From positions 46,192,001-46,256,000 of the forward strand of contig CM059432.1 in assembly GCA_030390025.1 (NCBI GenBank): DNA of 64,000 bases, given 5' to 3'. Shown here piece by piece: positions 10,541 through 44,568 of this stretch. The notes under the pieces are model-generated. The model was not told the origin of the DNA and made no database searches. It worked only from the letters and a program-made list of their open reading frames with translations. The stretch is from Squalus acanthias. Lineage: Eukaryota. The stretch's first letter is position 1, and the number at the start of each line of letters is the position of its first letter. The position numbers were made by a program, and so were the translations under genes.

Positions 10541-12121
10541 CGGAGCCCGCCCGCCACCAACCCGCCTTCCACCAGAAAATTCCGGCCACTGTTATTTCTG
10601 CCGCAGAATCTGGCCCAATATAAAATCATTTTCAAATGTGGAAATGTATATTGAATCCATTTCAAGGAGGCAGCACATTCTGAACACTGCCTGCAGCTAC
10701 ATTATATTGGTGCTTTTAAAGTCAAAATTAAAACATTAAATATTGCTGGGGGTGAAGTTATTACAAAGTGCTGACACATCATCAGCTGGCCAATATAAAC
10801 ATGCTAATTCAGAGGAAGCATACTGAAGTGCACTAATTACCACACTCAATCTATATATGACATATCTAAAAATATACTTTATAATTTGCTTTTATTTTAA
10901 TTTTCTGTGTAAATTTTGTTCTCGTCAAGGTGAAAATGTTGTAGGAAAGAATATGAGACTTTCTATTGCATGCACCCAATGTCAGCCTGGAACAATCCCA
11001 GGTCAGGTATAGCACTTTTCGAAGTAGTGTGAAGCCCTTTTCACTGTGCCCCAATAATAGATCCTTAGCCCCAACTTCGTAAAAACAACCTAGCTGCCTG
11101 TTTCTTGCCTGAAAAACAGGCAGTCAGCAGTTAAAAATCAGGGGGGGGGGGCACCTTAGCCACCCCAATGATGCCCAAGGCCAGTGATGTAATTTTCAGG
11201 CTGGCCTGCAAATGGGTGATCAGCATGCCGACCTGTGTCAGGCAAGAGGCTGCTTACATATGCAAAATCCGGGCGCTATGCTGGTTGTAGGACCCCGCTT
11301 ACAACTTTCAGGTACAAATGAGCAGAGTGAGTGCCACGCAACTCTTCACATTTGTACCAGCCAGTGAGCAGCGTAACCAGCATTCCTAAAGGGGGGGTAT
11401 TTATGTGGGGCTCCACAAAATTACTGTAGCCTACCTTCCACCTCCTCTTTGATGGCCCCCCCCCCACCCCCCCCCCCCCCCCCGCCCACCACACCTCAGG
11501 CCCGACGTGCTGGCCAGCTCACCTGTTTGGTGCCCGCAGCTCAGCCAGCTACATTTAGATCAGTACCAAACCTGAAAGTGGTTCAGACCTCCCAACATGC
11601 CATCAGGAGGATGGTGCAGCTGCCCCGCTGACATCATGCCTGTTTGAGGCAGTAGTTGAAAATCCCCCCCCCGCCACAGTGTGTTCAAAGCTCAGTTTGG
11701 ATAGGACCCTTACAACCAGGAACCAAAAGAGACTTTAGTTTATGCTAGATTTGAACCTAACTCTGGGAAGTGAAAAGCCAGTGAAAACCCATTGCAGCAG
11801 CAGCCTATCATAAAAGTAGAATTTTTATCTGAATATAGTGAAAATGCATTCAGAATATTTACTAATCTATTTTTTAGGTTGTTATCTTCCAATGACTACA
11901 CAAATTTTTATTTTCCACCCATTTTTCAATTCACTTGTTCCCTCTCATCCCTATTTTCTCAGGTACTTGCATTCAAAGGGCAGAGCAAGCAGGGTGAGAT
12001 AAGTGGAGGAAAATCCAGTCCTTCATCATGCGCAGGGTCCAAAACTGAACACAATACTCCAAGTTCAGCCTTATATAAGCTAATTCTAGTACTCTTCATT
12101 TTGTACTCCTAGTAGCACAAC

Positions 12122-13153
12122 TGTAGCACCAGCTTTCTGGCTATTTTTATGAATCACATTTTATATCCAAAACCCCAAGAAAGAACTGTACTGTTGGGCA
12201 AGTTTGTGGGAGTGGCTCAGGGATAGGATTGCAAGCCAGGCTAACCTGACTAAGGTGTATTCATATGCAAATGAACATCTCACACTGACAGGCTGGGTGG
12301 AAGGGAACCCAGGCCGATTGACGTCATCACCATCTAACATGATTACTGGGAACAATACCCCAAGAGGTAACTCAGAGACACTATGCCCTCACATCAATAA
12401 AGCTCAGTCCCAACCGAAACTGGTGGAAGGCAGGAGATGGCCAGGCCATTGTCTTCCAGGAGATAAGCCAGTTAAGCAAGTTCGGTTTGAGATTGAAACC
12501 CATTACCTGCTAATGGGGGCCATCAACTCAGGAAACGACAGACATCCAGTAATCAGCACTCATTGTCTCTCCAGGTGCCAGGCCTGGGAGCGGAGAAATG
12601 GAATATCATTTTTCACAAAGATTTCAAAGGTCATGAGTCACTCCAGGCCACAGGAGGGTCCAGTCAGATCACCTGAGTCAATACATCGATCAGTATTGGC
12701 GGGATAAAAAGGTTTTGGGTATATAGGAGCCGTTCGGGGGCTGCTCTCTCTCTCTCTTCTCCTCGGCGTCAATCTGCAGCGAGTCTCCCGAGTGGGGCTT
12801 GGCTCGACGGAACACCGCCAGAAGCTGAGCGCTGCTCTTCAACCCTCATCAACGGACCTCGACTCAAACTGGAACTAACCAAACCTTAGAGGGTTTAGTG
12901 CTGGGGTCCTGTGTTAGTTTATTTCACGGGAGGGTTCTTTTACTAGTCCGTGGTAATTTAGCACTGGTATGGCTTGTTGGACAGGCCAGGGTTGTATTGT
13001 TTTGTACTGTTACGAGTGTCATTGTTAATCCGATTAAACACAATATGGTTGAGCTCAAACGGGTGTCCGAGTCTGATCTGTCCATATAATCCCTATCATC
13101 CAGAACTTGTAGTAAGAGGTGTGTTTTCAGTGCGCCCGAGAAAACCCCTTACA
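12122..13153 (+). repeat. E1 5' LTR
   Basis: TGTAGCA...CCCCTTACA; direct repeat of 21369-23110 with a few percent mismatch; lacks the 148 bp found at 22126-22273; ATTAAA at 13033. Confidence 0.95.
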
Positions 13154-13158
13154 GAGAT

Positions 13159-13176
13159 TGGTGATAGCTGGCAGGA
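13159..13176 (+). promoter_or_regulatory. E1 primer-binding site (tRNA-Ser-like, imperfect)
   Basis: TGGTGATAGCTGGCAGGA, 5 nt after the LTR; resembles the complement of a vertebrate tRNA-Ser 3' end (TGGCGTAGTCGGCAGGA, recalled from memory). Confidence 0.55.
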
Positions 13177-13227
13177 CGATAGGTTTTGTGTCAGATCATA
13201 GACAGTTTTAAGGGCAAGAGGCCCGGA

Positions 13228-14869
13228 ATGGAGGATAGGATTTCCTCCTAGGTGTTCAATAAGATTAACGTGTCTCAGTCATGGGTGCTGGAGATGCTGC
13301 GCTCTGAGTGTCCCCGGGATAGGGCTGCAGAGTGGACAGGTAGTAGGGATCACAGGAAGTCAAAGGAGAAAGCGATTTGGCTCCTGTGTCTGCAGAAGCA
13401 AGTTCAACTGCTCAGGGAGCAGGTTGAAAAGCTAGGGAACGAACTTAAAGAGTCTGAGGATAAGTCAGACGCGAGAGAGATAGTCGGGAGTAGACTATTA
13501 GAGGAACTGCACGAGGAAAGGCAGGAAAGACGTGCGCAAGAAGAGACCTGCCGGTAACACGGTTGAATACCTACAGTGTCAGGTTACAGAGGCCAAGGTA
13601 AACCAACAGGCCCTACGGGAAGAAAATGCGAGGCTAATAGCGACAGCTGACAGCTTGGAGGGCCAGCTAAGGGATATAAAGATAGCTTATAAAGTAGCCA
13701 GGGGTAGAGGCTATGAGGAAGCAAATCACGGACAATGTAAGGAAAGGATTCAAAAATTGACCCAAGCCTTGTCCGGAGCCAGAGGTATGGCCTGTTTAAT
13801 GTCACCTGGGGGAAACCAGGGTAGACTGGGACAAGGAGGGTCAGGAGCCTGATAATGGGGCTCAGGACAGGGAAGTCCGACCGGCGCCTGAAGCGCCACC
13901 GAGACCAATGTGGCCTCTGCGGCAGCAGAAGTTCAGTCCACCCGCACCAAACGGTGACCAGGGCCCACTGCAGAGCGATTACGTGGTCACGTACACAACC
14001 CCTCAGCTGCAAGCCATGCTATCAGGGACGCCCAAGCTCAAACGGGACGGGGACCCCTCAGTTCACTTTATGGAAGTAGAACAGGTAGGGGGGGTCAACG
14101 GATGTAGTGAGGGCGAGATCAACAGGCTGATGCTGTTTTCCCTTGACGGGGGATTGTATCAGAGCTTATCTGCAGCCACAAAGCTGGGAGGGGGCACCAC
14201 AGAGGGGTTGAAAGACGAGATCCTGAGGGCCATGGGGCATACCCAGAGTAGCCCGTTCTTACAAGTAGAACGGACCAGGCAGCTGGCCGGTGAGGCACCA
14301 GATGCATTCGCGGACAGGCTATGGCCTGTGTACGTAAAGGCAACTGGAGGGACGCTTGACCGCGCGCAGTTGATAGGGGCCCCCAGGAATCACTGGCTCA
14401 GGGTCCTTGTGGCGAACAGCTTGCCAAGGATCAGGGTCAGGGCAGAAGCGTGGTTTGACCCTGAGGACCTCGTGAATACGGAGGCAGGCATGCTCAGAAA
14501 GCTGAGTCTAGCCTTTAAGGCCGATTCTGGGGAGGTCAAATCAAAGGGAAGGGTCCACGAAATGAAAGCCAGTGAGGGTAATAGGAAGGAATGGCGACAG
14601 GAAAGGGTTAGTACCGACAAGTCCAGGACTTGTTTCGGGTGTGGGAGACGGGACACTGGAGGCGAGACTGCCCGTTCCCCAAAGGGGGGAGACCAGTCCC
14701 AGGGATCCTCCAGTGCAAACCACGTGTTACAGAGGCAGAGGGGACGACCGACGAGTCGTTCGAGCTTCTGGTGGCCGCCCTACTGAAGACTATGGGGAAG
14801 GACAAAGGCAAGTTAGACGCTGCCGTGAGCAGTGAAGCGCCTACCGCACCTGTACGCCCCCCACCCTGA
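13228..14869 (+). pseudogene. gag: E1 gag (coiled-coil N-terminus, capsid-like region, CCHC knuckle); stops and frameshifts
   Basis: ORF pieces 13252, 13532, 13908, 14630 align with E2 gag; CFGCG-x-TGHWRRDC knuckle split by a 1-nt deletion near 14647. Confidence 0.88.
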
Positions 14870-17800
14870 CTAGAACGCGCCCAGCCTGAGTACCTGTGCC
14901 TGCTCACGTACGATGAGTGGAGCAGGCCCTGTGTAAAGATGGGGGTGGAGACGGTGCAGGGGAAATATTTGGTGTGCACCGGGGCTTCCAGCACAGTGGT
15001 CCATTCAAAAAACCCGACCAATTCACCCTGGTCTAGCAGGGTCCCATTCAGGCTCGTGGGGTTCACAGCGAATGAGCAGGCTGGGGCAATCTCAAAACCC
15101 CTGGCCATAGAACTAGGATCCCTCCATATCACGTGGGAGTGTGTCCTGATGCAATGGGAACAGCCAGGATCAGGAGTCCTCGGGGCTGACTTTATGTTAG
15201 CCAGCCGAGTGATTGTGGATTTAAGGAATCACTGCCTATGGGGTGCAGCGGATTCAGATAAAGCCGAGGAGGTGCTAGTGATCCCAAGAGATAGGGAAGC
15301 AAGGGGTAGTGTGTGTACTATGAAGCCCAAGGGGAATTACGACCTAGAGCAGTTGGTCTGTAATACCCCAGCCAAGTATCAGGCGAACGTGCGGGACAAC
15401 CTCGCCGCATTCGCCACTCACAAGCACGACTGTGGCAGGGTGACAGGGGTAGAAGTCAGGGTGCAAGGGGACCCCATGTCACGGCCACAGAAACAGTACA
15501 GTTTCCCCAGAGAGGCAGAAGCCGACTTAGAGACGGCACTGGGATCCCTCGTAGAACAAGGGGTGTTGAGGCCGATAGCCACCCACGTAAACTCACCACT
15601 TTGGCCGGTTAGGAAGCCCGACCAGTCGTGGAGAGCCACCGTGGACTATCGAGTGCTCAATAAAAATATCCCAGCCTGCGCATCCACAGTCGCGGCTGTT
15701 GCTGACCTCATAGGGAGCATTCCAGTGACCACAACCACGTTCACGGTGCTGGATATCTCCAATGGGTTCTGGTCGGTTCCCCTCAAACGGAAAGACCAGT
15801 ACAAATTTGCCTTTACATTTAAAGGGCAACAGTACACCTGGACATGCCTTCCCCAGGGGTTTCACAACAGCCCCTCCATATTTCACCAGTGTATGGCCGA
15901 CGCACTCAAAGGCTTCAGCCGACCCAACCAGCTAATCCAGTATGTGGACGACTTGCTTTTGTTCTCCGCGGTGGCGGAGGAGTACAGGCCACTGCTGGAC
16001 GAGCTGTTGAGGCTGTTGCGGGAGACAGGGTTTAAAGTGAATCCAAAGAAAGCCCAGATCGGTCGGGAGGAAGTCAAATTCCTCGGGCTGACTGTGAGGG
16101 CTAGTGAGCGAGCGATAGATGAGGCAAAAAGAAAGGCAGTACAGGAGTTACCAGCTCCCAAGGATATAACAGGGTTAAGATCCTTCCTGGAACTCACAGG
16201 GTACTGCCGGGAATTCAGAGAGGGTTACGCAGCCACGGCAGCCCCTCTGCTTCGGCTCTCCGCAAGGGAGTCGGGTGGGAGTGGGACCAGAACTGCCAGG
16301 AAGCGTTCACCCGCCTCAAGGAGAATTTACAGACGGCACCCGTGTTGGGAGCCATTAACAGTAGTGAGGAATTCCTTTTGGAGGTAGCAGCCAGCGGGGA
16401 TAGCTTGAGCGCGGTGTTGCTCCAGGAGCGGCACGGCAAGCTACAACCCGCGGTCTACTCCTCAAGGGTTCTCACTGAGGTAGAAAGGGGATACTCCAAC
16501 TGCGAGAGGCATCTCCTAGCGACGCACTGGACCGTAAAGCTCTCCCAGCTCTTTACGGAATCATCCCTGATAACTTTACGAACTCACCACACCCCCACTC
16601 AGATGTTGTTAGACGGGAGGATAAAGGACGGAACAGTGAGCAGTGCCTGTATTGCTCGCTGGACTTTATTGCTCTCGCAAATGAATCTGAGAGTGCAGGG
16701 GTTGACAGAGCCAAAGCTGGCTATGAATTTAATCTACCCAGGGACTGCCCATGCGTGTACTGTAGAAGGGGTGTGGGACGTAGGTGTGGGATTCCGGGCC
16801 GGGATACACCCGACAGGCCGGGACATCTACGTAGATGGGTCCAGTTCGGTGGTGAACGGGGAGCATCTCAGCGGGTGTGGGATTTATGACCCCACAGCTA
16901 AGGTAGTGAAGGCCATTAAACTCCCCAGCACCCTGAGCGCTCAGCGCGCCGAACTGTCGGCGGTGGCGTACGTGGTTGCCCACCCCGACAAATTCCCCAC
17001 CCCCTATACCATCTGCTCGGATTCCATGTTCACCTGTAATTCATGCACGGAGTACTTGGCCATTTGGGCCAGGCGCGATTTCAAGTCCACAGATGGGAAG
17101 CCCCTAGCGACAGCACCGTTGCTAGGGAGAATTTTAAAAGTCGCGGGCACCCGGGGAGATTACTACATACACAAGGTTAAAGCCCATTCAAAGACAGAGC
17201 CCAAGTGGGAGGGCAACCAAAAGGCAGACGAGCTGGCCAAACAGGGGGCCAGGGAAGGAGTATTCTGGGATCCGTACAGAGCAGGTCTGGTAGCAGCAAT
17301 CTGGGACAAGGGAGGCACACGGGGTTAGCTTTGGCCCCGGACTTAACACAAGTCCAAGCACAGGATCCTGTACTTAAGGCCGTCCTTGTAAAAAGGGAGA
17401 ACGGCGCACCGGCAGAGGGTCCGTTCGGGGCAGTGGACATCACGGTTAAGGAAGGGATGCTTTTCAAAGGGGATCGTTGGATAGTTCCAGCACAGCACCG
17501 GGAGGAGTTCCTCCAGTTAGCCCAAGGGGGCCCGGGGGCAGGACACCCAGGCTGGAAACTACCTGGCAAAGGGTAGAGGAGGCGGGGTGGTGGCCCCATC
17601 TCAGGGAGGAAGTCAAAGAATTCTGTGCGAATTGTTTGGTGTGTGCGGCTAACAACCCCGATCCCCAGCGCAGAAAAGCCCCCATTGGACACACCAGAAG
17701 GGTAGAGGGACCATGGCGGTCCCTGCAGGTCGATTTCATCGGACCACTACCCACCACTAAAGCAGGTAGCAAGTACTGCTTAGTCCTGGTGGACGTATTC

Positions 17801-18748
17801 TCGAAGTGGTTGGAGGCCTTCCCATGCCGAGCAGCCACGGCACTAGTGACAGCTAGGATCCTGGTGAGGGAAGTATTCTCCCGATGGGGACTGCCACAGG
17901 TCGTGGAGTCCGACCAAGAGAGCCATTTCACGGGGCAGGTGATGCAGGCCACCTTAAAACTTTTGGGAATACAAGGGAAGTGGCATGTGGCTCACAACCC
18001 CCAGTCATCGAGGATTGCGGAGCGCATGAACCGGACACTGAAAAAAAGACTAAGGAAGGAGATAAGCCCGTTCCCGCAGAGATGGGACGAGGTCTTGCCT
18101 CTAGTCTTAATGGGTGTCCAGGCCAGCCCCTCCAGAAGCACAGGGTACTCTCCACATGAGCTCATAACCGGGAGGATTATGCGCACCCCAACCCACGTGT
18201 TGGCGCCGGTCCTCACCGAAGCTCAGGTCAGGGAGGTAAACCGGGACAGATTTGTCCACAATCTGTTTGACACTTTAAAACAGATTCACTGGCAGGCAGC
18301 CAGTAACCTGGGGAGCCAGCACTGAAAAAATCAGTTGTTGCTAGAGCCCCAGAGAACCCACGAGTGGAAGGTGGGAGACCAGGTAATGGTCAGGAACTAT
18401 GCCCACGTAGGGGTGTTCGAGCCACTATACATGGGGCCTCATAACATCGTAGATAAGGCGAGGCCCATGGTATATGTGGTGAGACTCCCGAAACGCATGA
18501 AATGGTATCACATCAACCAGTGCAAGTTGTTTAACCCCGAGGAGGGGAAAACAAAGGCAAGGAGAAACCAGGGCAGGATAATGAGCCTGGTGGATGCGGG
18601 TCTTCCTCCCATGGTGCGGGACGATGATGATGACCCGGAGGACGGGGCGGTAAGGAGAAGCAGTCGGGTCCCACGGCCTAGGGTGCCGTGGACGCCTCCT
18701 TACTCGCCGACCGCGAGCCACAAGAGGCCCCGGCTCGAGAGGTTTTAA
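14870..18748 (+). pseudogene. pol: E1 pol: protease, RT, RNase H tether, RNase HI, integrase; disrupted
   Basis: LVCTGAS (protease DTG mutated), LDISNGF, LPQG, YVDD, tether EVAAS...YSNCERHLLA, RNase H YVDGS/AELSA/SDS/GNQKADELA, integrase QVDFIGPL, ESDQ, ERMNRT, GPH. Confidence 0.93.
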
Positions 18749-18892
18749 CCGAGGGCACGCGATAACACGGAACGAACTATAAATATATGTAAATAACGAA
18801 AGCCAGACCTGTGGAGGAAAAACCTCTCACAGAGCGGTGTTGCTTTGTCTGTTTGTCTTAATATAGAAATCAGAAGAAACCGGAGAAGTAAA

Positions 18893-21125
18893 ATGGAGAC
18901 AACCCTAAGACTGAGCATGCTCATAATTCTGGTGGGAACGGGACACATGGAGAGAGGAGACACCGAGGTGTCCTTCCTCTACGGCTGCACAGGAGGAAAC
19001 GGACCCACCGTGACACGGGGGGGCAGGACAGGGGACACGGACGGGATGGCTGCTTACTTCCACGAGGGAAGGTGGCCGGGGTGGTTGGGGTTGAATTTGA
19101 CTAGATACTCCAACAACACCGGTTTCACATTTGGGGCAGCATCCATACCGTGTCCCAAGCTGCAGATCACAGCCACACGGGTTAGGGCGACCGAGGGGAA
19201 GCGCGTTTGTTTAAAATGTGAGGGACACATTCCCTTGGGACGGTGGTGGTGGTTGAGAAAGTTGGACCAGGCCAAGGGTAACAGATCCGCGGACTGGGAG
19301 AGACTGGGGGTCGACACGTACCGACAGATTACGGGGACGAATGGGGGAGTGGAAGTGTGCTGGAACAAGTGGTGGAAGGAGGAGCTGGGCATTTACGTGT
19401 GTGTGGGGGTCAGAACGGATCTGCCCGACGGATGTGTCGATTGCCTTTTCGCGGCAATGGCAGGACTCCGGGGCCGGGATCGGATGGGATCGGAGTTTGG
19501 ACTCCTGCGTGATCCCAGACCCTCCCAACACAGTAAATGCCACAGAACTCGTTGCACAAGAGAGGAAGCCCCTGCCCACAGCCCCACAGGCACAGGGAAC
19601 AGAAATTAGGTGTCCTGCCACCACACCGGGACCGAGAAACGGGTTAGTGTTGGTCCCAACGGGAAAGATCTTGTATCATGATGTACACTATGAGGTAGCA
19701 TCGGTCATTTTGAATTTAACCCGAGTGCAGCTGCCCCGGTGGTGTCCGGCAGAAACAGAGAGGCTTTACGAGACCTTGTTGAAAGTGATGCTCCGCCAGT
19801 TTTACGAGCTAAGTTATGAGGATGAGAGTCGGGAAGGGTTGTATACATTTAATACGAACAGTCGCGTTGGTTCGGGGAGACAGAGGAGAGGGGTGTTCAA
19901 CGATGCTGCCACAGTGTTCAGCACAGGAAAGTCTCTGATAAACAGTTTGGACGATGCACAGCTGCAGATGCAGGTCAACACTCTAGGGATCAGCTGCGAA
20001 AGATACTGCGGGAGGGTAACGAGCTAGAGGGGTCGGAGTTACGGGAGGACCAGGCTATGACCATACATTTAAAGGAGGTCATAGCCGAGCTGGAGGCGCA
20101 CGCTCAGACGATCAATAGTTTGATCAGGGAGGATCGGGATGCGTCGGCACAGGCAGCTAGAAATGATGCGTGTGTGCTGCACGGTGCGTGGCTGCTGAAC
20201 GAAGGGAGCAGTCATTTGGAGGACCTGCAGCAAGGTCGCGTCCCTTCCTGGGTTAGCAACCGGCATCTCACCGCGCTGAGCCCGTATGATAATCTGATGA
20301 GCCCGTGTCAACTCCAGCTGGCCTCAGAGGCCTACCCGGTTCTAGTTGATGGGGATCGTACTCCGAATGCTGGTAATGGGCAGGTCACAGCGGCCAGCAC
20401 TGGTATACTGGGTAGAAAACATTGGTGTCCTGAGGAACGGGGTGCACATGCGGCATAATGGGGCCCCACCGTTCGTAATAAAGTGGGAACACGCCATGAC
20501 CGGCACTGACCTCAAGGGGTGCCAGAGCAGGGGTGCGCACATGGTGTTGTGTCCCCAGCACCTGAACGCGTTCGATCGACCAGTGTGTGGGTTTGAATCG
20601 GAAAGTGCAGATCCCATCAAATGCACCATGGAGGTAATGGCCCAGGGCCACGTTCCACATCAGATAGCATCCGCGAGCAACGGGACGTACTGCGTCACGA
20701 CGAGTGTGGACCAGTATTGGGTACACCACGACACTTGGTGCCCTGTCGCTGACAAAACTTTCTGCTTCAAACCCCACACAGAGGTTCAGGTGGCGCAAGG
20801 GCGCATCATCCCCATTTCAGATTTCACCACGGTACACCTCACGGTGAGCGACACGATACAGGACCTGCAGCAATACGTAACACGGTTCAGGTATGAAATT
20901 CCTCCTCTGCCTGAACACCTCACAAAACTAATAAAGGAAGTTGAACTGTCTCAACAACACTTCTACACCCTCGAACAACGGAACAGGGAAGTGGGGGAAG
21001 AAATAGAAGAAATGGCTTCCCCGCCCTGGTGGGACTTTGATTTGAATGTCGAGATCCCTCCATGGATCCGAATAGTTTCACACACAATAGTGGTAGTACA
21101 ACTAATCATGGTGTTGTATCTGTAA
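18893..21125 (+). pseudogene. env: E1 env: signal peptide, Ig-like domain, F-like class I fusogen, TM; frameshifted
   Basis: METTLRLSMLIILVGTG signal; RQRR/GVFND cleavage site at 19878-19889; heptad region; Cys-rich region; PPWWD followed by hydrophobic TM. Confidence 0.85.
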
Positions 21126-22429
21126 AAGTTATCCTGTAAAAAGAGAAGGAAAGCACTCTGAAATCATTCGGAGGCCCTAATAAAAGGGTAACCAGGAGTT
21201 GTACTGCCTGTAAATATGGCGAATTGAATTGTTATAAGAAACGGGACCCCAGGTTTCATTGATAAGTAATGTACAGTTTGGTCGAGACCCACAATGTGCC
21301 TCCCGCAGCAGAAGACGACGAAATCCGTGATATTTCTGCTTTTGGTGACGAAATATCGAAGGGGGGAATGCAGCATCAGCTTTCTGGCCATTTTTATGAA
21401 TCATATTTTATATCCAAAACCCCAAGAAAGAACTGTACTGTTGGGTAAGCTTGTGGGAGTGGCTCAGGGAATAGGATTGCAAGCCAGGCTACCCTGACTA
21501 AGGTGCATTCATATGCAAATGAACATCTCACACTGACAGGCTGGGTGGAAGGGAACGCAGGCCGATTGACATCATCACCATCTAACATGATTACTGGGAA
21601 CAATACCCCTAGAGGTAACTCAGAGACACTATGCCCTCACATCAATAAAGCACAGTCCCAACTGAAACTGGTGGAAGGCAGGAGATGGCCAGGCCATTGT
21701 CTTCCAGGAGATAAGCCAGTTAAGCAAGTTTGGTTTGAGATTGAAACCCATTACCTGCTAATGGGGGCCATCAACTCAGGAAATGACAGACATCCAGTAA
21801 TCAGCACTCATTGTCTCTCCAGGTGCCAGGCCTGGGAGCAGGGAAATGGAATAACATTTTTCACAAAGATTTCAAAGGTCATGAGTCACTCCAGGGCCAC
21901 AGGAGGGTCCAGTCAGATCACCTGAGTCAATACATCGATCAGTATTGATGGGAGAAAAAGGTTTTGGGTACATAGGAGCCATTCGGGGGCTGCGCTCTCT
22001 CTCTCTTCTCCTCGGCGTCAATCTACAGCGAGTCTCCTGAGTGGGGCTCGGCTCAATGGAACACTGCCAGAAGCTGAGCGCTGCTCTTCATCCCTCATCA
22101 ACGGACCTCAACTCAAACTGGAACTTGGATATCACGTCGGCGGTAAGGAACCAGGAGCGAGATGTACAGGAAGAAGCTGCAAGCAAGACAACGGGCAATC
22201 GGGGTGAGCATATTGCCTGCGCCTACACATCCACAAGACCACTTAGCTGTGTGAGGGGGTGATTGTAAGTCCCAACCAAACCTTAGAGGGGTTTAGTGCT
22301 GTGGTCCTGTGTTAGTTTATTTCACGGGAGGGTTCTTTTACTAGACCGTGGTAATTTAGCACGGTATGGCTTGTTGGACAAGCCAGGGTTGTATTGTTTT
22401 GTACTGTTACGAGTGTCATTGTTAATCCT

Positions 22430-22977
22430 GATGTGGAGATGCCGGCGTTGGACTGGGGTGGACAAAAATGAGAAGTCGCACAACACCAGGTTATAGTCCA
22501 ACAGATTTATTTAATTTTACAAGCTTTCGGAGCTGTCGCTCCTTCGTCAGGTAAGTTAGCAATGAGAGAATCTCCCAGAATTCACAATTTAAACCCAGAC
22601 AAAATCTATTCACATTATTCGCTACAACAAAGAGCACAGCCAAGACAATGAGATGTGTCCCAGGGGGTCCAACGTGTCAAACCACCTGCTGGCTGCATAT
22701 CCTGTCAATTTGTGTTCTTGTGTTAGCCTTTTTAAAAAAAAAACAAAAAAAAAAAAACACCTGGGAAGACCGGCCATGATGTCAAGTCACGTTCTGTATC
22801 GTGACATGAACCCGATATCGCGATTGAGGCCATCCTCATGAGTGCGGAACTTGGCTATCAGTTTCTGCTCTATGATTTTGCGCTGTCGTGTATCTCGAAG
22901 GCCGCCTTGGAGAACGCTTACCCGCAGATCCGAGGCTGAATGCCCCTGGCTGCTGAAGTGTTGTGCGACTTCTCATT
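22430..22977 (-). mobile_element. Penelope-like element 3' fragment (GIY-YIG endonuclease C-terminus, pLTR, inverted tail)
   Basis: 12-bp TSD ATTGTTAATCCT (22418-22429 / 22978-22989); 22787..22960(-) translates HFSSQGHSASDLRVSVLQGG...EQKLIAKFRTHEDGLNRDIGF; terminal inverted copy of TGAGAAGTCGCACAACAC. Confidence 0.85.
22517..22552 (-). ncRNA. Minimal hammerhead ribozyme
   Basis: Minus strand CUGACGA-A-GGAGC-GACA-GCUCC-GAAAGCUU: both catalytic boxes, a 5-bp stem II and a palindromic short stem III. Confidence 0.75.
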
Positions 22978-23955
22978 ATTGTTAATCCTATTAAACACAA
23001 TATGGTTGAGCTCAAACGGGTGTCCGAGTCTGATCTGTCCATATAATCCCTATCGTCCAGAACTTGTAGTAAGAGGTGTGTTTTCGGTGCGCCCGAGAAA
23101 ACCACTTACACAACCGAAAACCTTATGAATGTCCTTAATAGCAACCTCACACTGCTGATTTAACAATTGATCATCTATTATCCCCAGGTCTCTTTCATGG
23201 TTCATCACCATTAACAGCTACTCCTGCACGGTATAAACATGCCAGGCCTTTCTTTACCCCAAGTGCATGACATTGCACTTCTCAATGTCAAATGATATCT
23301 GCCACAACTGTCCCATTCACGAATTTTTCTAAATCGGCCTATAATTTACTGATTTGACGTAAAGTAATTTTCACTATTCATATTTTTTTATGATCTGAAA
23401 ATTTAAGAATGGTTTTACTGAAGCCCTGCTTTGAATCATTAATGCAAATGATAACCAGCAATGGTCCTGATAAAGAGGCTTGTGCAACTCCATTCATAAC
23501 CAAGCCCCAGTCAGAACCATTCCTATTCATGACAGCCCTTTGATTATTATAACTGCCTAAAATCCTATGTGATCTAATTTTTGCTAATAGCTATCCATGC
23601 AGTACTTAATTAAACTTTGAAAGTTAAGGTATACAACATCAACCAAACTATTTTCAGCCACCATTCTGATCGATTCTAAAAGACCTCAATCAAATTAGTG
23701 AGGAAGAACATTTCCTAAAGCTATGTTGGGTATCCCTAATATCTGCTGAACCTGTCAAGTGATCATATATCACCTCCTTATGATTCTACCCAATAGTTTC
23801 CTTATGGCTATGATCACTTCTGTTTCTAATTTACGTAAATGACCTAGATTCAGAAACTTAATGCAAAGTGGTCAAATTTGCAGATAATATTAAATGAGGA
23901 GGAGTAGTGAAATTGGAAGAGGCAACTCAGGAACTACAGAATGAGTTGGACAAGA

Positions 23956-33607: not shown

Positions 33608-34542
33608 TGAAAGGATTCGCAAAATTTCATGTGTCCTCCCCGAAGATTTTTGTTGGACTTTTTAATAAGGAACCCTGGTCTGACTGAGTTTTAAAATCCA
33701 GGGCATAAAATGGCTGCGGTCAGACCTCGTGACCAAGAGCCTTTCAGACGCTGGCAAACTATCAGCTTGTGTATTCCGATGCAATGGGGACAAACCCAAT
33801 CAGGTCTACGCATAAGGCTTTCAAGGTGTTTGCTCAAATAATCAGCGGGGACATTGAGACTGGGCTGGCCCATCATCGAACCAGTCGGACAAAGGGGAGC
33901 AGTTGAAGAACTGGTATGATACAATTAACCTTTTGTTAAAATTCATCATGCCCAGATCAGACAATAGAAATGAGCTGATCTGAAGGGGGATTAGGACGAC
34001 CGCGAGGGTATAACTGGGAAGACCCAGCCCCTCTCTCTCTCTCTCTCTCTCTCTGCCTGGATCCCGGTTCACCCTGCCTGTCTGCCAGCAGCCAAGAAAG
34101 AAGACCAGAAACTTCATAGCCACGTTTCGACGGCAGAAACAGGGTACAAGGCCAGGCTTTTCCATCCATTTCACCGGTGAGCATTATCTTCTTCTGGCTG
34201 TCGCAAGACAATTTTAGTTAGGCATAAGGGTGGGAATTAATGGGGATATTGCTAAAATTGTAATTTTAGGATTTTCCCTCGATGTGTCCGTTCTCCTCCC
34301 ATGTTAAGTGTAAAACCGTCTTCATATGATACTGTTTCTCTGTAGTTTTACTTCTGTAAATAAACATTGGTTTTCCTCGCACCAATCCACGGGTCTGTTT
34401 GTTTGTCCTTATCGCCGCTCGATAAGTCCTGGGCTCAGAACTAGGAAGGGGATAGCAATTCGCAACCACACAATGGGCAGGACAGCTCAGGAAAACATAA
34501 CTGGCTGACCTACAAATAAGCCCGAGACAAAAACCCCTTACA
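33608..34542 (+). repeat. E2 5' LTR
   Basis: TGAAAGG...CCCCTTACA; TATAA near 34009, (CT)n tract, AATAAA 34359-34364; near-identical to 43641-44568. Confidence 0.95.
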
Positions 34543-34546
34543 GAAA

Positions 34547-34563
34547 TGGCGAACCAGGTAGGA
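34547..34563 (+). promoter_or_regulatory. E2 primer-binding site (imperfect, tRNA-Ser-like ends)
   Basis: TGGCGAACCAGGTAGGA, 4 nt after the LTR. Confidence 0.5.
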
Positions 34564-34617
34564 ACCCAGGTGAAAGCGTGTGATAAGGCAGACCGTGTTG
34601 CGGAGGAGGAATCCGCA

Positions 34618-36455
34618 ATGGAGCAAAGATTATCTATCTATGTGTGCGGCAAAGTTAATATCGCAAAAAAATGGGTGTGCGATATGTTAAAAGCCGAGCG
34701 CCCCCTAGATGCAGCTGCCCAGTGGACAGCAAGTAAAGAGTACAGGAGAGGTATTGAAAAAGCGGTCTGGCTCATGTGTTTGAAAAAGCAGGTTTTAGTG
34801 TTAGACCGTGCTGTTGCAACACGGGCAGCCAAGATCAAACAGTTGACCCGAGAGCTGCAGGAAAAGACTGCAGCGGAGGAGAAAGTAGTAGTGGCCCTCC
34901 AGGCAGTAAGCCAAGAGAGGGCACAGACGGCACGGGACCATCAGGCTGAGTTAGAGTGTATGAGGGCCCGGGCCGTTGAAGCTCAAAGGGAACACCAGGC
35001 AAAGTCAGAGCGCCTGGAAGACCGGATCGCTGAGCTCAAAAGTAGCGCTAGGCACAGGATGGAACACCTGGAATACCAGGTCAGAGAGGCGAGAGGTAGT
35101 GAGGTTAGGTTAATGGACAAGATTTCCAGCCTCACGCAAGAGTTGAAAGAGCAGGAGGAGAAAGTAGGCGAAGTAAAAGCAGCATATAAGCTGGCTTGTG
35201 CCCAGGGGTTTGAAGACACAGACCACGGCCCCTGCAGGCAAGAAATAGAAAGCTTGGGTATGGCCTTAGTAAGGGCGAAGGGCATGGTATGCCTCATTAG
35301 CCCAAAGATGGGCCAGTTGGATTTTACCAGCAACCCAAGCAGGGAAGTCCCACAGGCAGCTCCCAGAAAGGCACTGGTTAGGGAATCAGAGGTTTCGCGA
35401 CCGCCACCCATAGCCTCGAGTTTTCAGGAGGCCTGGCAGCAAGGTGGGGTGGAGGATGGAGCATTAGGGGAGATCCAGCAGGCCCTAGGGGATAAACCTG
35501 GTCCGGGACCAGTGTACCCCTTCCGACAACGGAGGTACAGCCCGCCAGCCGATGGCGAGGACCTAGGGGCCATCCAGAACCAGTTTGTAGTGCCGCATGG
35601 TACCCAACAGCTCAGAGCCATGGTTGGACACATCCCTAAGCTCACAGTGAGGGGGGACCCCTCTCTACATTTCCGGGAGATAGAGCAGGCAGCATCCGTT
35701 AATGACTGCAATGAGGCAGAACAAGCAAAAATGCTGCTGTTCTCTCTGGGTAGTGATCTCCTCCAAACCCTATCGGATGAGTGTAAGAAGGGACAGAAAG
35801 ATTACGAGGAGTTAAGGGATGAGATATTGAAGGCCATGGGACTAAATGATGGGAGTCCGTTCGCCCGAGTGGAAAAAATGGTATAGCTCCCCGGGGAGTC
35901 CCCGCAGGCATTCGCAGACAGGCTGTGGCCAGTCTACCAGAGCGCATGCCCGGAACGCCAGTGCGGACGTTCCTCAACAGAGACCAATTGGCCCACTGGC
36001 TCCGTTGTCTCATGACAAACTGCCTGCCCCAAATCCGAGCCCAGGCTGCGGCCTGGTTTGACCCCCGAAACCCCCAGACCACCGAAGAAACGGTGATCCG
36101 CCAGCTCACGGTAGCATTTAGAAATAACGGGAGGGGAATTGAGATGCCCCAGCCCAAAGGGAAAGTCCACGAGGTTAAACCTGGGGGCCAGAATAAGAAA
36201 GAGTGGCACCAGGAGGGAAACCGTCCCTCCTAGAATAAGTTAAACTGCTATGGCTGCGGGAAGGACGGCCACTGGCGCAAAGATTGCAAAAACCCCTGGA
36301 AGGACACCAAGGGAAAGAGCTCCACATCTCCAGGCCCAAAGGTAGACACTGGGACCCCCACAGTAGAGAGCGTTCTAGAATCACTGCGGGTTCTCCTGGT
36401 CAGTCAGGGGAAGATAGCAGTTCCCTCAGCCCCCTCTGACGATGCCCCGCAATGA
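34618..36455 (+). pseudogene. gag: E2 gag (long coiled coil, capsid-like region, CCHC knuckle)
   Basis: MEQRLSIY aligns with E1 MEDRISS; frameshift near 35930, stops at 35884 and 36231; CYGCGKDGHWRKDC at about 36246-36287. Confidence 0.88.
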
Positions 36456-39400
36456 CTGGAGGCCGCGCAGCCTGTCTACCTGTGTGCTCTCCGGTATGAT
36501 GGATGGAAGAGACCGCTCGTGCAGATGGAGGTAGAGAAGGTTAAAGGGACTTATCTGCTGGATACGGGGGCATCATGCACTGTAATCCACGCAGCTAATC
36601 CCACCACCTCACCTCTGTCTAGCGGGGTTCCATACGTTCTATCGGGGTTCACCGGCAAGGAACAGGCGGGAGCATTCTCCAAACCGCTCTCAGTCCGCCT
36701 GGGTCCACTCCAGACCAAGTGGACATGTGACCTGGCGAGGTGGGAAGCGGAGGGAGGAAAGGGGATCCTAGGGGCCGACTTCATCGTGGGCCACGGGATC
36801 CTCGTGGATCTCCAAAATCATTGCCTTTGGGGGGCTGATACGGGTAAGGAGAACGGTGTGGTAGTAATCCCAGGAAAGGAGGGGAAGGGAATCCTGTGTA
36901 CTGTGAAGCCGAAAGAAGGTTACGACCTCGGGCTCATGGTGGAGGGTGTCCCGGAGGAATTTAAAGCATTCGTGCAGGCTCACCTAGCTGCGTTCACCAC
37001 GCACAAACATGACTGCGGGAGGGTCACTGGGTTCGAGGTCAGGGTAGACGGAGACCCCATGCCCGGCTCCAGAAGCAGTATAACTTCCCCAGGGAAGCAG
37101 AGCCTGATATGGAGATAGCCATATCCTCGCTGGTACAGCAGGGAGTGTTGAGGCCCATAGCCACTCATGTTAATTCTCCGATTTGGCCGGTCAGGAAACC
37201 GGACAATTCATGAAGAGCCATGGTGGACTATCGGGTGCTCAACAGCAATATCCCCGCGTGTGCCCCCACGGTGGCAGCAGTTGCCGACCTTATTGGAAGC
37301 ATTCCAGCATCCGCGACTACGTTCATGGTGCTGGATATTTCGAATCGGTTTTGGTCGATCACCTTAAGGAGGGAAGACCAGTATAAGTTTGCCTTTACTT
37401 TTAAAGGGCAACAGTATACTTGGAACAGCTTGCCGCAAGGCTTTCATAACAGCCCCAGCATCTTCCACCAGTGCATGGCGAATAGTTTAAAGTAATTTAG
37501 TCAGCCCACCAAGTTGGTGCAGTATGGGGAGCATGGCCCGCTACTGGCCGAATTGCTGGAGCTGCTGCAGAGTATAGGGTTTAAGGTCAACCCGAAGAAG
37601 GCGCAGATCGGCCAGCGGGAAGTTAAATTCCTGGGTCTGACCGTCCGCGCAGGGGAGAGAGCCATAGATAAGGCAAGGAGGGAAGCGGTCCAAGAGCTAC
37701 CGGTCCCCAGTACTGTGAGGGGTGTGAGGTCGTTCTTAGGGCTAACGGGGTACTGCAGAGACTTTATCGAGGATTATGCAGCCACGGCAGCCCCTCTGCT
37801 CCGACTCCTACATAAGGGAGTGGAGTGGTCTTGGGATGGGGGGTGCCAGGCAGCATTTGTCCAGCTAAAGAGGGACCTGCAGACCGCACCAGCCTTGGGA
37901 GCGATAGATGGAGGGAGGGAGTTCTTTCTGGAGGTAGCGGCCAGCGGGGACAGCCTCAGTGCCGTGTTGCTCCAGGAGCGTCACGGCAGGCTGAGGTCCG
38001 TGGTCTACTCCTCCAGAGTACTCACTGACGTGGAGAGGAGCTACTCAATTTGTGAGTGGCACCTCTTGGCCACGTACTGGGCTGTGAAAAGATCATCGAT
38101 CTTCACAGGCACCTCTCCCATCACCCTCCTCACACACCACACGCCCACCCAGATGCTTCTGGACGGGAGGATTAAAGATGGGACAGTCAGCAGTGCACAC
38201 ATTGCGTGCTGGACCCTCCTCCTTTCCCAGATGGATCTGAGGGTGAGGGGCCTTTGCGAGCCCAAGCTCGCAGCCAATATGGTATATCCTGGAACAGCCC
38301 ATCGGTGTTCGATAGAAGGGGTATGGGAGGTGAACATTGGTCTGCGGACCGGGATACATCCCACAGGCTGCGAGATCTATGTAGACGGTTCCAGCATGGT
38401 ATCCGCTGGCGAACGTCTCACTGGGTGTGGAGTTTATGACCCAACAGCAAACATTGCCTTGGCGATCAAGCTCCCCAGTACCATGAGCGCCCAGCAGGCG
38501 GAGCTGTCCGCGGTGGTGTACGTGGTTACCCACCCCGAAATCTTCCCCACCCCATACACGATTTGCTCGGACAGTATGTTCACCTGCAACTCGTGCACGG
38601 AATACCTGGCAATCTGGTCCCGTCGCGGATATACCTCCGCTGACGGGAGGCCCTTAACAGTAAAAACCCTGCTGGAGAAAATCCAGGCAGCCGTGGGGGA
38701 GGAAGGCGAGGTCTTCATCCACAAGGTGAAGGCTCACTCCTCCACAGAACCCCGCGGCCAGGGTAACCAGCAAGCTGACGCGCTGGCCAAGGAGGGTGCC
38801 CGCGCTGGCATTTTCTGGGACCCCTATGGGTCCGGGTCCGTGGCGGCAGTTAGAGGCAGGATGGGACACAGAGGAGCTTAGGGGTAGCGTTGGCCCTGGA
38901 TCTTAAAACGGTCCAAGCCCAGGACCCTGTCCTGAAAACCGTCACAAGCGCAGTGAGCAAGGGTAGGAGGATAGAAGGCCTTTACAGCGCAGCAGCCCTC
39001 TCCATAAGGGAAGGCATGCTGTTTAAAGAAGGACAGTGGGTAGTGCCCCAGCAGCACCGGAGGGAGTTCCTTCAACTGGCCCATGAGGGTCCGGGAGCGG
39101 GACACCCCGGGCCTGAGGCCACCTGGCAACGGGTGGAACAGGCGGGATGGTGGCCGGGACTCCGGGAAGATGTCTGCGAGTTCTGTGCTAGCTGTCTTGT
39201 GTGCGCTGCAAACAACCCCGACCCCCACAGAAGGAAGGTGCCCATGGGACACGTCAGGAGGGTGGAGGGACCATGGCAGTCGATCCAGATCGACTACATC
39301 GGGCCCCTGCCCACCGCCCAGGGAGGCTACAAATACTGCCTCGTCCTGGTGGACGTGTTCTCCAAGTGGGTAGAAGCCTTCCCCTGTAGAACAGCCACAG

Positions 39401-40681
39401 CACTGGGCACTGCAAGGATCTTGGTACGGGAGGTGTTCTCGCGGTGGGGACTACCCCAGTTTGTGGAGTCCGACCAGGGATGCCACTTCACCGGCAAGTC
39501 ATGCAGAACACCCTTATGCTGCTCGGTATTCGGGGGAAGTGGCACGTGGCCCACAATCCACAGTCCTCCGGGATTGTGGAACGTATGAACCGCACCATCA
39601 AGGAAAAGTTGAGGAAGGAGACCATGGACTCGCCCCAAAAATGGGCAGAGGTCCTGTCCCTAGTCCTCATGGGGATCTGAGCAAGTCAGTCAAAGAGTAT
39701 GGGGTATTCCCCGCACGAGCTCATGACCGGCAGGGTCATGAGGACCCCCACCCACGTCCTAGCCCCAGTTCTTACGGAAGGGCAGCTTCGGGAGGTAAAC
39801 TGGGACCAATTCGCCCGAACGCTCCTTGAGCGCCTGAAACAGATTTATGAACAGGCCGCAGGTAGCATGGGGAAGCAGCATCGGAATAACCGACTGCTGC
39901 TCGAACCTAATAAAACACATCAATGGGAGATAGGGGACCTGGTAATGAAAGGAACTACGCCCGCATGGGGAGTTTTGAGCCACTGTACATGGGACCCTAT
40001 AGCATAGTGGATAAAGCCAGCCCCATGATTTACGCAATAAAATTGCCCCAGCGCACGAAATGGTTTCACATAAACCAGTGCAAGCTGTATAAGCCGGAGG
40101 CGAAGAAGCAGGCAGCTGGGACCCAATCCGAGGTTAGAAGTCCTCAGCTCCCAGCAGGTCTCAGCTCACAGGCAACACGCTCAGGTACAGTTTCGTGCGT
40201 TGAGGGAGGAGTCACCCAGGCCCCTGTTCAAACCACCCCCCCTCTCTTCTGGGACTCAGGTGGGGAGGAGGAGGAGCCTGAACCAGATAGCCCCGCCCCC
40301 GACCCAGGTTTTGAACCTGGAGGCGAGGACTCTCAGCCAACAGCAGCAGGCAGCGAGGGATTGCCTGTCCCCAGCTCAGACTTGGGAGGGGAGGAGCCAC
40401 GGGGGAAAAGCCCCCAGCCAGCGAGGACTGCAACCCACGGCAAGGGTCCGCTCGCCAGGGTAGCCCCACCTATAGCACTTCCTAGGAGGTCCCCTCGGAC
40501 ACCTCAACCTAGGAAGGCATGGTCGCCGACTCTCCAGTTTAAAGGGGTGACCTCCCGAGCAAAAGTTAAGTTAAAAGACAAAGGTGCCCAGCCAACTGTC
40601 GCAGGCTGTGAGGGACCAGAAGTAAGGGTCCATACAGCCACGCTGCAGGGAGCAGCCTGCCGCAGTCCTGACAGAGTTTAA
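36456..40681 (+). pseudogene. pol: E2 pol: protease, RT (YVDD deleted), tether, RNase HI, integrase with long C-terminal tail
   Basis: LLDTGAS, LDISN, LPQG, EVAAS tether, YVDGS...GNQQADALA, H-H-C-C zinc finger, QIDYIGPL, ESDQG, VERMNRT, GPY. Confidence 0.93.
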
Positions 40682-40936
40682 GCTAGCCGCTCGGAGACGG
40701 GTGGCGAATGTACAGAACTTGGTCTGAGAAGTTTGTAGTTTTAAGTTAGATTGTTGAGTTTGATTTTAAGGTGCGGAACCGTATAGCAGTTTTAAGATGG
40801 AACCGTTCCAGTGTATGTGTGTTTGTCCATGTGAGCTGAGGTCGAGGGACACGCTCACACTTCACCCCAGCCAAGGAGCCTATAGGGAGCCTGGCTAGAT
40901 GTTCTTCATTTTTTTTTTCAGGCAATTAAAAGGGAA

Positions 40937-43241: not shown

Positions 43242-43640
43242 CAAGAACCCAAAGGGTTTGGAGGGACCAGTATGCTCGGGTAGATGAGACACTCGCGTGA
43301 ATTCCGTGTCGCACCACTTACGAGTGATGGCGGCCTAATTTTATTATTTTTAATAAAGATGGTCCCCTCCGTTTGTTGTTTTTTTTTGATTAAAAAAAAC
43401 TGTTTTTTCCCAAGTGGTGCAGGGGTATGTTGGAACCCCTCCGTGCTGGGATTACTGGAAAAGAATTTGTTTCCTATCTAAAATGCCTGCTGTACACTGC
43501 GGTTATTCTCCAAGTGGGGGAATGTACGTGTCAGGGGAATTAGGATAGGTAAATAAAGGGGAAGGTTGTTTGCGACAGTCAGAAATTTTGTTCACCTCCT
43601 ATGGACACTTCAAGCAAGTTTAAGTCTCCACAGGGGGGAC

Positions 43641-44568
43641 TGAAAGGATTCGCAAAATTTCATGTGTCCCCCCCCGAAGATTTTTGTTGGACTTATTAAT
43701 AAGGAACCCTGGTCTGACTGAGTTTTAAAATCCAGGGCATAAAATGGCTGCGGTCAGACCTCGTGACCAAGAGCCTTTCAGACGCTGGCAAACTATCAGC
43801 TTGTGTATTCCGATGCAATAGGGACAAACCCAATCAGGTCTACGCATAAGGCTTTCAAGGTGTTTGCTCAAATAATCAGCGGGGACATTGAGACTGGGCT
43901 GGCCCATCATCGAACCTGTCGGACAAAGGGGAGCAGTTGAAGAACTGGTATGATACAATTAACCTTTTGTTAAAATTCATCATGCCCAGATCAGACAATA
44001 GAAATGAGCTGATCTGAAGGGAGATTAGGACGACCGCAAGGGTATAACTGGGAAGACCCAGCCCCTCTCTCTCTCTCTCTGCCTGGATCCCTGTTCACCC
44101 TGCCTGTCTGCCAGCAGCCAAGAAAGAAGACCAGAAACTTCGTAGCCACGTTTCGACGGCAGAAACAGGGTACAGGGCCAGGCTTTTCCATCCATTTCAC
44201 CGGTGAGCATTATCTTCTTCTGGCTGTCGCAAGACAATTTTAGTTAGGCATAAGGGTGGGAATTAATGGGGATATTGCTAAAATTGTAATTTTAGGATTT
44301 TCCCTCGATGTGTCCGTTCTCCTCCCATGCTAAGTGTAAAACCGTCTTCATATGATACTGTTTCTCTGTAGTTTTACTTCTGTAAATAAACATTGGTTTT
44401 CCTTGCACCAATCCACGGGTCTGTTCATTTGTCCTTATCGCCGCTCGATAAGTCCTGGGCTCAGAACTAGGAAGGGGATAGCGATTCGCAACCGCACAGC
44501 GGGCAGGACAGCTCAGGAAAACATAACTGGCTGACCTACAAATAAGCCCGAGACAAAAACCCCTTACA
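43641..44568 (+). repeat. E2 3' LTR
   Basis: Direct repeat of 33608-34542, followed by TSD CTGA. Confidence 0.95.

Follow-up and report, generated by a model that had tools for sequence, protein, structure and literature searches.

The window analysed here, a stretch of 64,000 nucleotides of the Squalus acanthias genome (GCA_030390025.1, contig CM059432.1, positions 46,192,001 to 46,256,000 of the forward strand), holds at positions 12122–23110 a provirus, E1, which raises two questions: which retroviral lineage left it in the germ line of its host, and what kind of envelope glycoprotein (Env) that virus carried. A first-pass annotation of the same letters took E1 for a member, or a near relative, of the lokiretroviruses and proposed that this group be extended to cartilaginous fishes. 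The comparisons described below lead to another placement, in which E1 is probably a germ-line fossil of a deep retrovirus lineage of fishes and amphibians, with snakehead retrovirus (SnRV) as its nearest named relative, and probably belongs with lineage I of the elephant-shark elements (CmiERV) and with the shark–frog group that has been called foamy-like. Its reverse transcriptase (RT) finds its best match in SnRV, and a closely related shark Env has a predicted fold of the kind found in paramyxovirus F proteins and in foamy virus Env. Among the readings considered, this is the one that we favour, and the evidence on both sides of it is set out below.

Reverse transcriptase and the link to SnRV

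In phmmer searches against reference open reading frames (ORFs), the E1 RT scored highest with SnRV (208.5 bits), ahead of foamy viruses (176.1) and gammaretroviruses (155.4), with weaker scores for two epsilon-like fish/frog records (128–129), betaretroviruses (58.7) and lentiviruses (54.8); the score with SnRV was also higher than that with any of 16 foamy genomes. SnRV (U26458 / NC_001724) and E1 are 38–43% identical over the protease–RT (PR-RT) region. The SnRV reference is the locus L001, which a scan of IMG/VR returned as the best of 15 confirmed retroviral loci for the E1 RT (43% identity), and whose RT is identical, letter for letter, to the sequence given for SnRV in the lokiretrovirus supplement, so that L001 is SnRV. 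A second scan added foamy, lentiviral and betaretroviral genomes, and several labels were checked against named rows of that supplement. Among solved structures, the best match was the foamy PR-RT 7kse (178 bits), followed by murine leukaemia virus and its relative XMRV (MLV/XMRV, about 150), Ty3 (115) and human immunodeficiency virus (about 58).

The first-pass annotation had proposed an RT phylogeny as a check on its reading. FastTree, applied to 67 RT cores, recovered a clade of E1, its coelacanth, frog and further relatives and SnRV, which stood as the sister group of the remaining retroviruses. The rows P0024, P0025 and L015, with fewer than 170 core residues, were left out of the RT sets. 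In IQ-TREE, SnRV was sister to the foamy viruses plus the remaining retroviruses, with supports of 98 and 96.6, and the five Ty3/Gypsy outgroups formed a long separate branch in the 35-sequence run. Judged from these RT sequences, the E1 family would therefore lie near the base of the retrovirus tree, beside SnRV.

The likeness to SnRV is not confined to RT. In both E1 and SnRV an in-frame stop codon separates gag from pol, Gag carries a CCHC motif, and a tether precedes RNase H in Pol. E1 combines a Gag of the orthoretrovirus type, with a motif like the major homology region (MHR) and CCHC, with a gag–pol read-through arrangement, traits to be expected in a relative of SnRV. The primer-binding site (PBS) of E2, a second provirus of the window that is treated below, agrees at 14 of 18 letters with that of SnRV (34547–34564 in E2, 84–101 in L001), and the TTACA at the U5 end of the long terminal repeat (LTR) of SnRV is a further likeness. 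SnRV differs in being an exogenous and complex virus, with ORF1–3 and a 3'ORF, and in the length of its Env, which exceeds 1100 residues, against about 745 codons in E1; its gag–pol stop is TAG instead of the TGA of E1, and its integrase tail matches MLVIN_C, whereas that of E1 matches SH3_Tf2-1 weakly.

Two published groups are relevant in that sense. Han (2015) described endogenous retroviruses (ERVs) of the elephant shark, among which CmiERV lineage I clusters with SnRV, and Aiewsakun & Katzourakis (2017) reported foamy-like ERVs from sharks (CmiFLERV), found as pol alone, that cluster with an element of Xenopus tropicalis (XtrFLERV). The E1 family likewise has cartilaginous-fish hosts and a frog partner lineage, also in X. 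tropicalis, and since this shark-and-frog pattern is that of the published cluster, E1 and E2 are taken as presumptive members of the CmiERV-I/CmiFLERV/XtrFLERV group. Of the two studies, one groups the pol of these elements with SnRV and the other puts it basal to the foamy-like ERVs, and CmiERV-1 is about 9.6 kb long with an LTR divergence of 0.033. To the pol-only shark and frog elements of 2017, with which they are compared by description, E1 and E2 would add gag and an F-type env.

A putative F-type envelope

The env gene of E1, of about 745 codons interrupted by three frameshifts, begins with a signal-like sequence, contains an RQRR motif and ends in a membrane anchor. As the first-pass annotation had noticed, it does not have the transmembrane (TM) subunit motifs usual in retroviruses, and no retroviral Env family of Pfam was matched; indeed, neither PF00523 nor any other Pfam family was found in the seven env ORFs of the window (E1 and E2), in four shark and skate relatives or in 27 further relatives, with the sole exception, among these 27, of a sub-threshold match to Baculo_F in P0053 (E 0.0011). 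Word-based searches with Env retrieved named relatives only from a sawshark and a skate, and a profile run against 1.84 billion proteins yielded 31 relatives, of which ten were looked up, seven coming from sharks and two from frogs. The nearest named relatives being sharks and a skate, the annotation's guess of a cartilaginous-fish host agrees with the Env evidence, and the genome size of 3.71 Gb is usual among elasmobranchs. The family is also present in an orectolobiform shark (P0036) and in frogs (P0061, P0049), and a model of X. tropicalis, P0010, joins an RT of the E1 type to an Env of the E1 type.

The fold of this Env was approached through P0005, a sawshark homologue 54–75% identical to the pieces of E1 and E2. 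A Foldseek search with its AlphaFold model placed the post-fusion foamy Env 8rm1_D at the top (E 9.2e-6), followed by the F proteins of human metapneumovirus, parainfluenza virus 5, respiratory syncytial virus and measles virus, with 26 matches at E <= 0.001, and in a language-model search its nearest clusters were PF00523 and PF12259 (score 0.92). The elements of the protein follow one another as cleavage site, fusion peptide, long heptad-repeat A (HRA) helix, beta-rich domains I and II, heptad repeat B (HRB) and TM anchor. On the strength of the modelled relative, the E1 Env is predicted to be a class I fusogen of the paramyxovirus F, foamy virus and baculovirus F type, and both the fold and the language-model clusters bear out that part of the first-pass reading in which E1, as a relative of the lokiretroviruses, would have an Env similar to the fusion proteins of Mononegavirales.

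Profile comparisons point in the same direction. Searched against PDB, the broad Env profile had foamy gp130 as its top sequence match (E 0.011), and in a small local set of 16 foamy genomes, 12 gave a match at a constant place in their Env ORF, with domain E-values below 0.01 and down to 4e-6. The narrow profile (A4) gave as its best PDB match a ferredoxin (E 0.11) and found no foamy Env, the best E-value being 0.74. With hhalign, the family profile aligned to the SnRV Env (SnRV 7628–9160) at a probability of 84% (E 7.3e-6, 268 columns), a match of moderate strength that covers the first heptad helix as well as the basic cleavage site, whereas with a foamy Env the probability was 29%. From these alignments, the Env proteins of the E1 family and of SnRV are probably homologous. 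The fold of the SnRV Env itself was tried as further support; its model was poor (mean pLDDT, the predicted local distance difference test, 47.7), all Foldseek rows listed through rank 50 were paramyxovirus or pneumovirus F proteins, only one of them at E <= 0.001, and it was set aside because the rows of its alignment are the shark and frog Env family and hence not independent. A literature search, which did not cover Wang, Chen & Cui (2023), retrieved no paper stating that SnRV or an SnRV-like lineage has an Env of the F or foamy type.

Architecture and decay of the provirus

A direct-repeat search and BLAST of both ends delimit E1 as a complete provirus from LTR to LTR (Table 1), flanked on either side by the 4-bp target-site duplication (TSD) CAAC. 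Both LTRs start with TG and end with CA, and a PBS, a polypurine tract (PPT) and the genes gag, pro, pol and env, in this order and all on the plus strand, complete the retroviral architecture. The coordinates given by the first-pass annotation are exact, its LTRs and 4-bp TSD are confirmed, and the word full-length is appropriate for the extent, yet every gene is broken: E1 is defective, and a whole protein can no longer be made from any of its genes. The shared portions of the two LTRs are 95.5–97% identical, and their Kimura two-parameter (K2P) distance is 0.062 (61 differences at 1031 aligned sites, 21 of the 61 in CpG context). At the mammalian rate that Wang & Han applied, this distance corresponds to about 14 million years; Han (2015) assumed a slow rate for sharks, at which the age would be ten times greater. 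The 3' LTR exceeds the 5' LTR by 710 bp because it contains 148 extra bases and, nested within it, an inserted repeat of about 548 bp.

Table 1. Features of E1, and the extent of E2, in window coordinates
Feature	Position	Strand	Remarks
5' TSD copy	12118..12121	+	CAAC, 4 bp; identical letters at 23111-23114
5' LTR	12122..13153	+	1032 bp, TG...CA; repeat search, BLAST
PBS-like stretch	13158..13175	+	degenerate
gag, N-terminal helix-rich (coiled-coil-like) part	13252..13852	+	two frames; frameshift near 13530
gag, capsid-like part	13800..14786	+	MHR-like motif ~14265-14333; CCHC 14631-14671; frameshifts near 13830, 14650
In-frame TGA between gag and pro-pol	14867..14869	+	read-through arrangement; E2 equivalent 36453-36455
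Protease and RT	14870..16387	+	uninterrupted 505-aa frame; RVT_1 3.9e-34; YVDD 15941-15952
Tether and RNase H	16123..17328	+	tether (degenerate RNase H) ~16282-16554; RNase H ~16825-17250; frameshift relative to RT near 16250
Integrase	17181..18748	+	zinc-binding part, rve core, GPY/F-type SH3 tail (GPHNIV 18434-18451); frameshifts near 17300, 17500; stop 18323-18325
env, putative F-type class I fusion glycoprotein	18893..21125	+	split into four frame pieces near 19410, 19985, 20350
env, RQRR cleavage-type site	19878-19889	+	
env, C-terminal membrane anchor	from 21063	+	
PPT	21358..21368	+	abuts 3' LTR
3' LTR	21369..23110	+	1742 bp; extra 148 bp (22126-22273) and nested insertion
Nested repeat within 3' LTR	22430..22977	.	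~548 bp; 12-bp duplication at 22418-22429 / 22978-22989
3' TSD copy	23111..23114	+	CAAC
E2, further provirus of this lineage, younger than E1	33608..44568	+	defective; LTRs 33608-34542, 43641-44568; TSD CTGA

In gag, about three frameshifts were found, one of which divides the CCHC knuckle between frames; the MHR-like motif is present in the Gag of both E1 and E2, and the single knuckle is intact only in E2. The coiled-coil Gag of the first-pass annotation stands as far as a charged, helix-rich N-terminus is concerned, which aligns to a coiled-coil-like stretch of about 150 residues in Gag of the E2 type, while the label itself is drawn from composition and from weak matches to coiled-coil families of Pfam. 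In a language-model atlas Gag gave weak leads (score 0.79; retrotransposon Gag-like, Ty3 capsid). In E1 and E2 alike, gag and pro-pol share one frame across the TGA.

The pol gene, with three frameshifts and one in-frame stop, yielded the Pfam domains RVT_1 (3.9e-34), RT_RNaseH_2 (1e-21) and RNase_H (6.6e-19), the latter two in a single ORF, as well as Integrase_H2C2 and rve, and the protease is recognised through the Pfam family RVP in the E2 counterpart. Since a tether (RT_RNaseH_2) and an RNase_H domain were both detected, the two RNase H-like domains claimed earlier are confirmed. Of the GPY/F integrase, the type of the tail holds, with the qualification that its SH3_Tf2-1 match (21.8 bits) lies below the Pfam cut-off of 30 and that the motif reads GPH in E1, against GPY in E2. 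The integrase-tail frame of E2 (39914–40681) continues for about 170 residues that are rich in proline, serine and acidic residues and match no family, and a shorter version exists in E1 (18326–18748).

When alive, the virus would have been a simple retrovirus. The model proposed here is that the LTR drove transcription, that a tRNA annealed behind the 5' LTR primed reverse transcription, and that RT, with its tether and added RNase H, copied the RNA, whereupon the integrase with its GPY/F tail would insert the DNA, duplicating four bases. Gag would have begun with a coiled coil, and its capsid part would have contained the MHR-like motif, with one CCHC zinc knuckle besides, and read-through of the TGA is presumed to have produced Gag-Pro-Pol. 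Env would have been made as a class I fusion protein of the paramyxovirus F or foamy virus kind, its signal peptide and outer part preceding a furin-type cut at RQRR, and its fusion peptide, long heptad helix, beta-rich core, second helix and membrane anchor following it; both its cleavage and its fusion activity are deduced from this layout. Rfam gave no match between window positions 11000 and 24500, and contigs from three sequencing runs, whose RNA type is a guess, cover parts of E1 at low depth, which permits no statement on transcription.

Two observations concern the sites of damage. A frameshift lies at an equivalent place of env in E1 (19985) and in E2 (42040–42044), just after the fusion peptide, and the two shifts differ in kind; this may reflect chance or a mutation-prone stretch. 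The insertion of about 548 bp in the 3' LTR of E1 has inverted ends and a 12-bp target duplication, and it is among the commonest repeats of the genome, with a summed contig depth above 1 million in one DNA run (X1).

Evidence weighing against an SnRV-like origin

Several results count against the placement beside SnRV. The IQ-TREE analyses (43 sequences, or 35 with five Ty3/Gypsy outgroups) gave no supported clade of E1 and SnRV; instead the E1-like sequences, the coelacanth group and SnRV formed an unresolved basal grade with supports from 0 to 85, and the outgroup attached, with low support, among the E1-like sequences or next to them, in one run inside the E1-like group. All the trees, FastTree's included, were built without lokiretrovirus, ERV-L, CmiERV and fish FLERV sequences. 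Outside RT, the signal is less specific: for the integrase core, phmmer scored one fish retrovirus record (139 bits) and gammaretroviruses (115) above SnRV (108) and foamy viruses (100), and RNase H did not discriminate, with 35–37 bits for four groups. No gag or env match to SnRV was obtained with tblastn, and the hhalign comparison of Gag with SnRV Gag was not significant (probability 3.9%).

The envelope evidence and the equation with published groups are exposed to similar objections. The quality of the P0005 model is modest (mean pLDDT 63.5), and VIA-align Z-scores of 5.0–5.4 for F and foamy Env fall in a range that may reflect a common arrangement only. The identification of E1 and E2 with CmiERV-I/CmiFLERV/XtrFLERV is deduced from host pattern and published text, not from compared sequences. 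Finally, SnRV carries accessory ORFs, whereas only about 240 bp separate the env stop of E1 (21125) from the 3' LTR (21369); these ORFs are a trait of SnRV and not necessarily of its clade ('Huo', Xu et al. 2018).

Alternative origins

It could be argued that E1 is a true foamy-type virus, related to Spumaretrovirinae, for instance a cartilaginous fish endogenous foamy virus. The shark and frog pol sequences of what is probably the same group were indeed published as foamy-like. Foamy viruses provide the best solved-structure match of RT, ahead of MLV/XMRV, as well as the top PDB sequence match of the broad Env profile and the leading Foldseek match, as explained above, and the fusion part of their Env (gp130, 8RM0/8RM1) shares its fold class and a weak profile similarity with E1, while their RT (7KSE) comes second after that of SnRV. 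Foamy viruses are, however, recognised by a Gag without Cys-His box or MHR, a Pol expressed from its own spliced mRNA and a PBS for tRNA-Lys. E1 and E2 differ on each count: their Gag combines a CCHC knuckle with an MHR-like motif, their pol continues the frame of gag beyond the TGA, and their PBS is unlike the site that retrieved the foamy genomes. Moreover, no foamy-specific Pfam family (Foamy_virus_ENV included) was found in gag, protease or env, the RT score was below that of SnRV in all 16 foamy genomes, the hhalign and narrow-profile results for Env were poor, and no space is left after env for genes like tas and bet. A foamy virus proper is thus an unlikely identity for E1. The Env of foamy viruses is known to resemble F proteins, and an Env of the F type is therefore no marker by which lokiretroviruses could be told from other deep lineages of retroviruses.

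The proposal of the first-pass annotation, that E1 is a lokiretrovirus or a sister of the lokiretroviruses whose lineage would thereby reach cartilaginous fishes, can be weighed against the description of that group by Wang & Han (2020). E1 shares with it the order LTR-gag-pol-env, a dual RNase H, an Env of the F type that has a basic cleavage site, and a deep position of RT, the E1-like sequences lying at or near the retrovirus root as lokiretroviruses are placed; the coiled-coil front of its Gag recalls the coiled-coil or SMC-like gene added in some members. Furthermore, lamprey members were formerly assigned to an SnRV-related clade, so that the two may be hard to separate. The RT motifs nevertheless differ: around the palm motifs, lokiretroviruses read ...ANGFWT...RCPFGYSNSPAEFN...IYVDDIL, whereas E1 and SnRV read LDISNGFWS...LPQGFH.SP.IFHQ...QYVDDLL, and a hand count over about 128 core RT residues gave about 54% identity between E1 and SnRV, against about 38% between E1 and a lokiretrovirus. 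In the accessible part of the lokiretrovirus supplement, SNGFWS occurs three times, each time in an SnRV row, five family-specific words of the frog relatives are all absent, which sets these relatives apart from the published Loki-Xtr/Xla sequences, and a sixth appeared in gammaretrovirus reference rows only (six of six).

The envelope and the host range also speak against it. Lokiretrovirus Env matches PF00523 at 2.2e-7, a family that is not detected in Env of the E1 family. Wang & Han reported lokiretroviruses in none of six cartilaginous-fish genomes (one Carcharhiniformes, three Orectolobiformes, one Rajiformes, one Chimaeriformes), and this screen included three genomes of the very order in which the E1 Env family occurs; in the same work the reference SnRV lies outside the lokiretrovirus clade. 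The extension of lokiretroviruses to chondrichthyans is consequently unsupported as a label, and membership or nearness of E1 has to be regarded as improbable, its RT being closest to SnRV and sharing the SnRV motifs where lokiretrovirus RTs differ. The grounds that the annotation itself had named for abandoning its reading, an RT in a known class and an existing description of the family, largely apply in view of Han (2015) and Aiewsakun & Katzourakis (2017).

That E1 might be an errantivirus-like, env-carrying Ty3/Gypsy element with an F-type env, and no retrovirus, is highly improbable: F-type env is widespread in metazoan Ty3/Gypsy, the integrase tail is of the GPY/F type and P0053 has its faint Baculo_F match, but a tether followed by an added RNase H is a retroviral arrangement, RT is nearer to retroviruses (208–155 bits) than to Metaviridae (115 for Ty3), the five outgroups stand on their long separate branch, and the study that documented these env genes reported no homologue of the invertebrate elements among vertebrate ERVs.

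E2, the genomic family and their implications

Returning to the SnRV-like lineage, a second provirus in the window, E2, shows that E1 does not stand alone. Its LTR K2P distance is 0.019, its pol is 72–77% identical to that of E1 at the DNA level, its env has three frameshifts, and its gag retains a 461-residue frame with a coiled-coil-like stretch of about 150 residues and an intact CCHC at 36246. Copies were counted in the genome to which the window belongs (3.71 Gb). For E1 pol, 40 of 4534 first-look candidates were scored, and at least 23 of them were near full-length matches at 93–97% identity, with others at 84–87%; for E1 env, about 20 matches at 90–95% were found. The Env type as a whole gave 10,036 first-look candidates, and among 100 that were scored, 87 had no stop in their match of about 416 residues and open env frames reached 870 residues. 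Gag of the E2 type gave 18,860 candidates, many of whose scored copies have an open frame of 656–657 residues. A family so large and so young, in which gag and env frames are still open, suggests recent infectious spread and is unusual for fish ERVs.

As a copy of the SnRV-like lineage, E1 is one more dead member of a retrovirus group already reported from cartilaginous fishes, and its modest further value comes from how its envelope is read and from how large and young its family is here. If the SnRV-like lineage does carry an F-type Env, three deep retroviral lineages would share one type of fusogen, which bears on the first acquisition of an envelope by retroviruses. A bolder version, which we hold only tentatively and consider rather doubtful, is that the shark, frog and coelacanth family of E1 and E2 forms a separate deep basal branch next to SnRV, and that its Env and those of SnRV, foamy viruses and lokiretroviruses are one F-type fusogen, the virus having been infectious in sharks until very recently or being so still. 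Were this true, retroviruses would have started out with an envelope of the F type, which the gamma-type Env replaced later, and the abundant relatives with open env frames would be the trace of that recent or continuing infection.

Other features of the genome and the window

On contig C6, at about 46.9–47.2 Mb, seven spaced gag frames of the E2 type, each of 405 residues and free of stops, all miss the same internal part; they could represent a segmentally duplicated cluster of gag-derived genes, or a deleted element within a duplication. Between E1 and E2, the window contains a Myb/SANT-like ORF on the plus strand (25196–25903) and a DDE_Tnp_4 transposase ORF on the minus strand (27384–28616), a pair that fits a two-gene Harbinger transposon. 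Upstream of E1, an open frame of 471 residues on the minus strand (709–2124), with a match to RVT_1 at 7e-33, probably belongs to an element of the long interspersed nuclear element (LINE) type.

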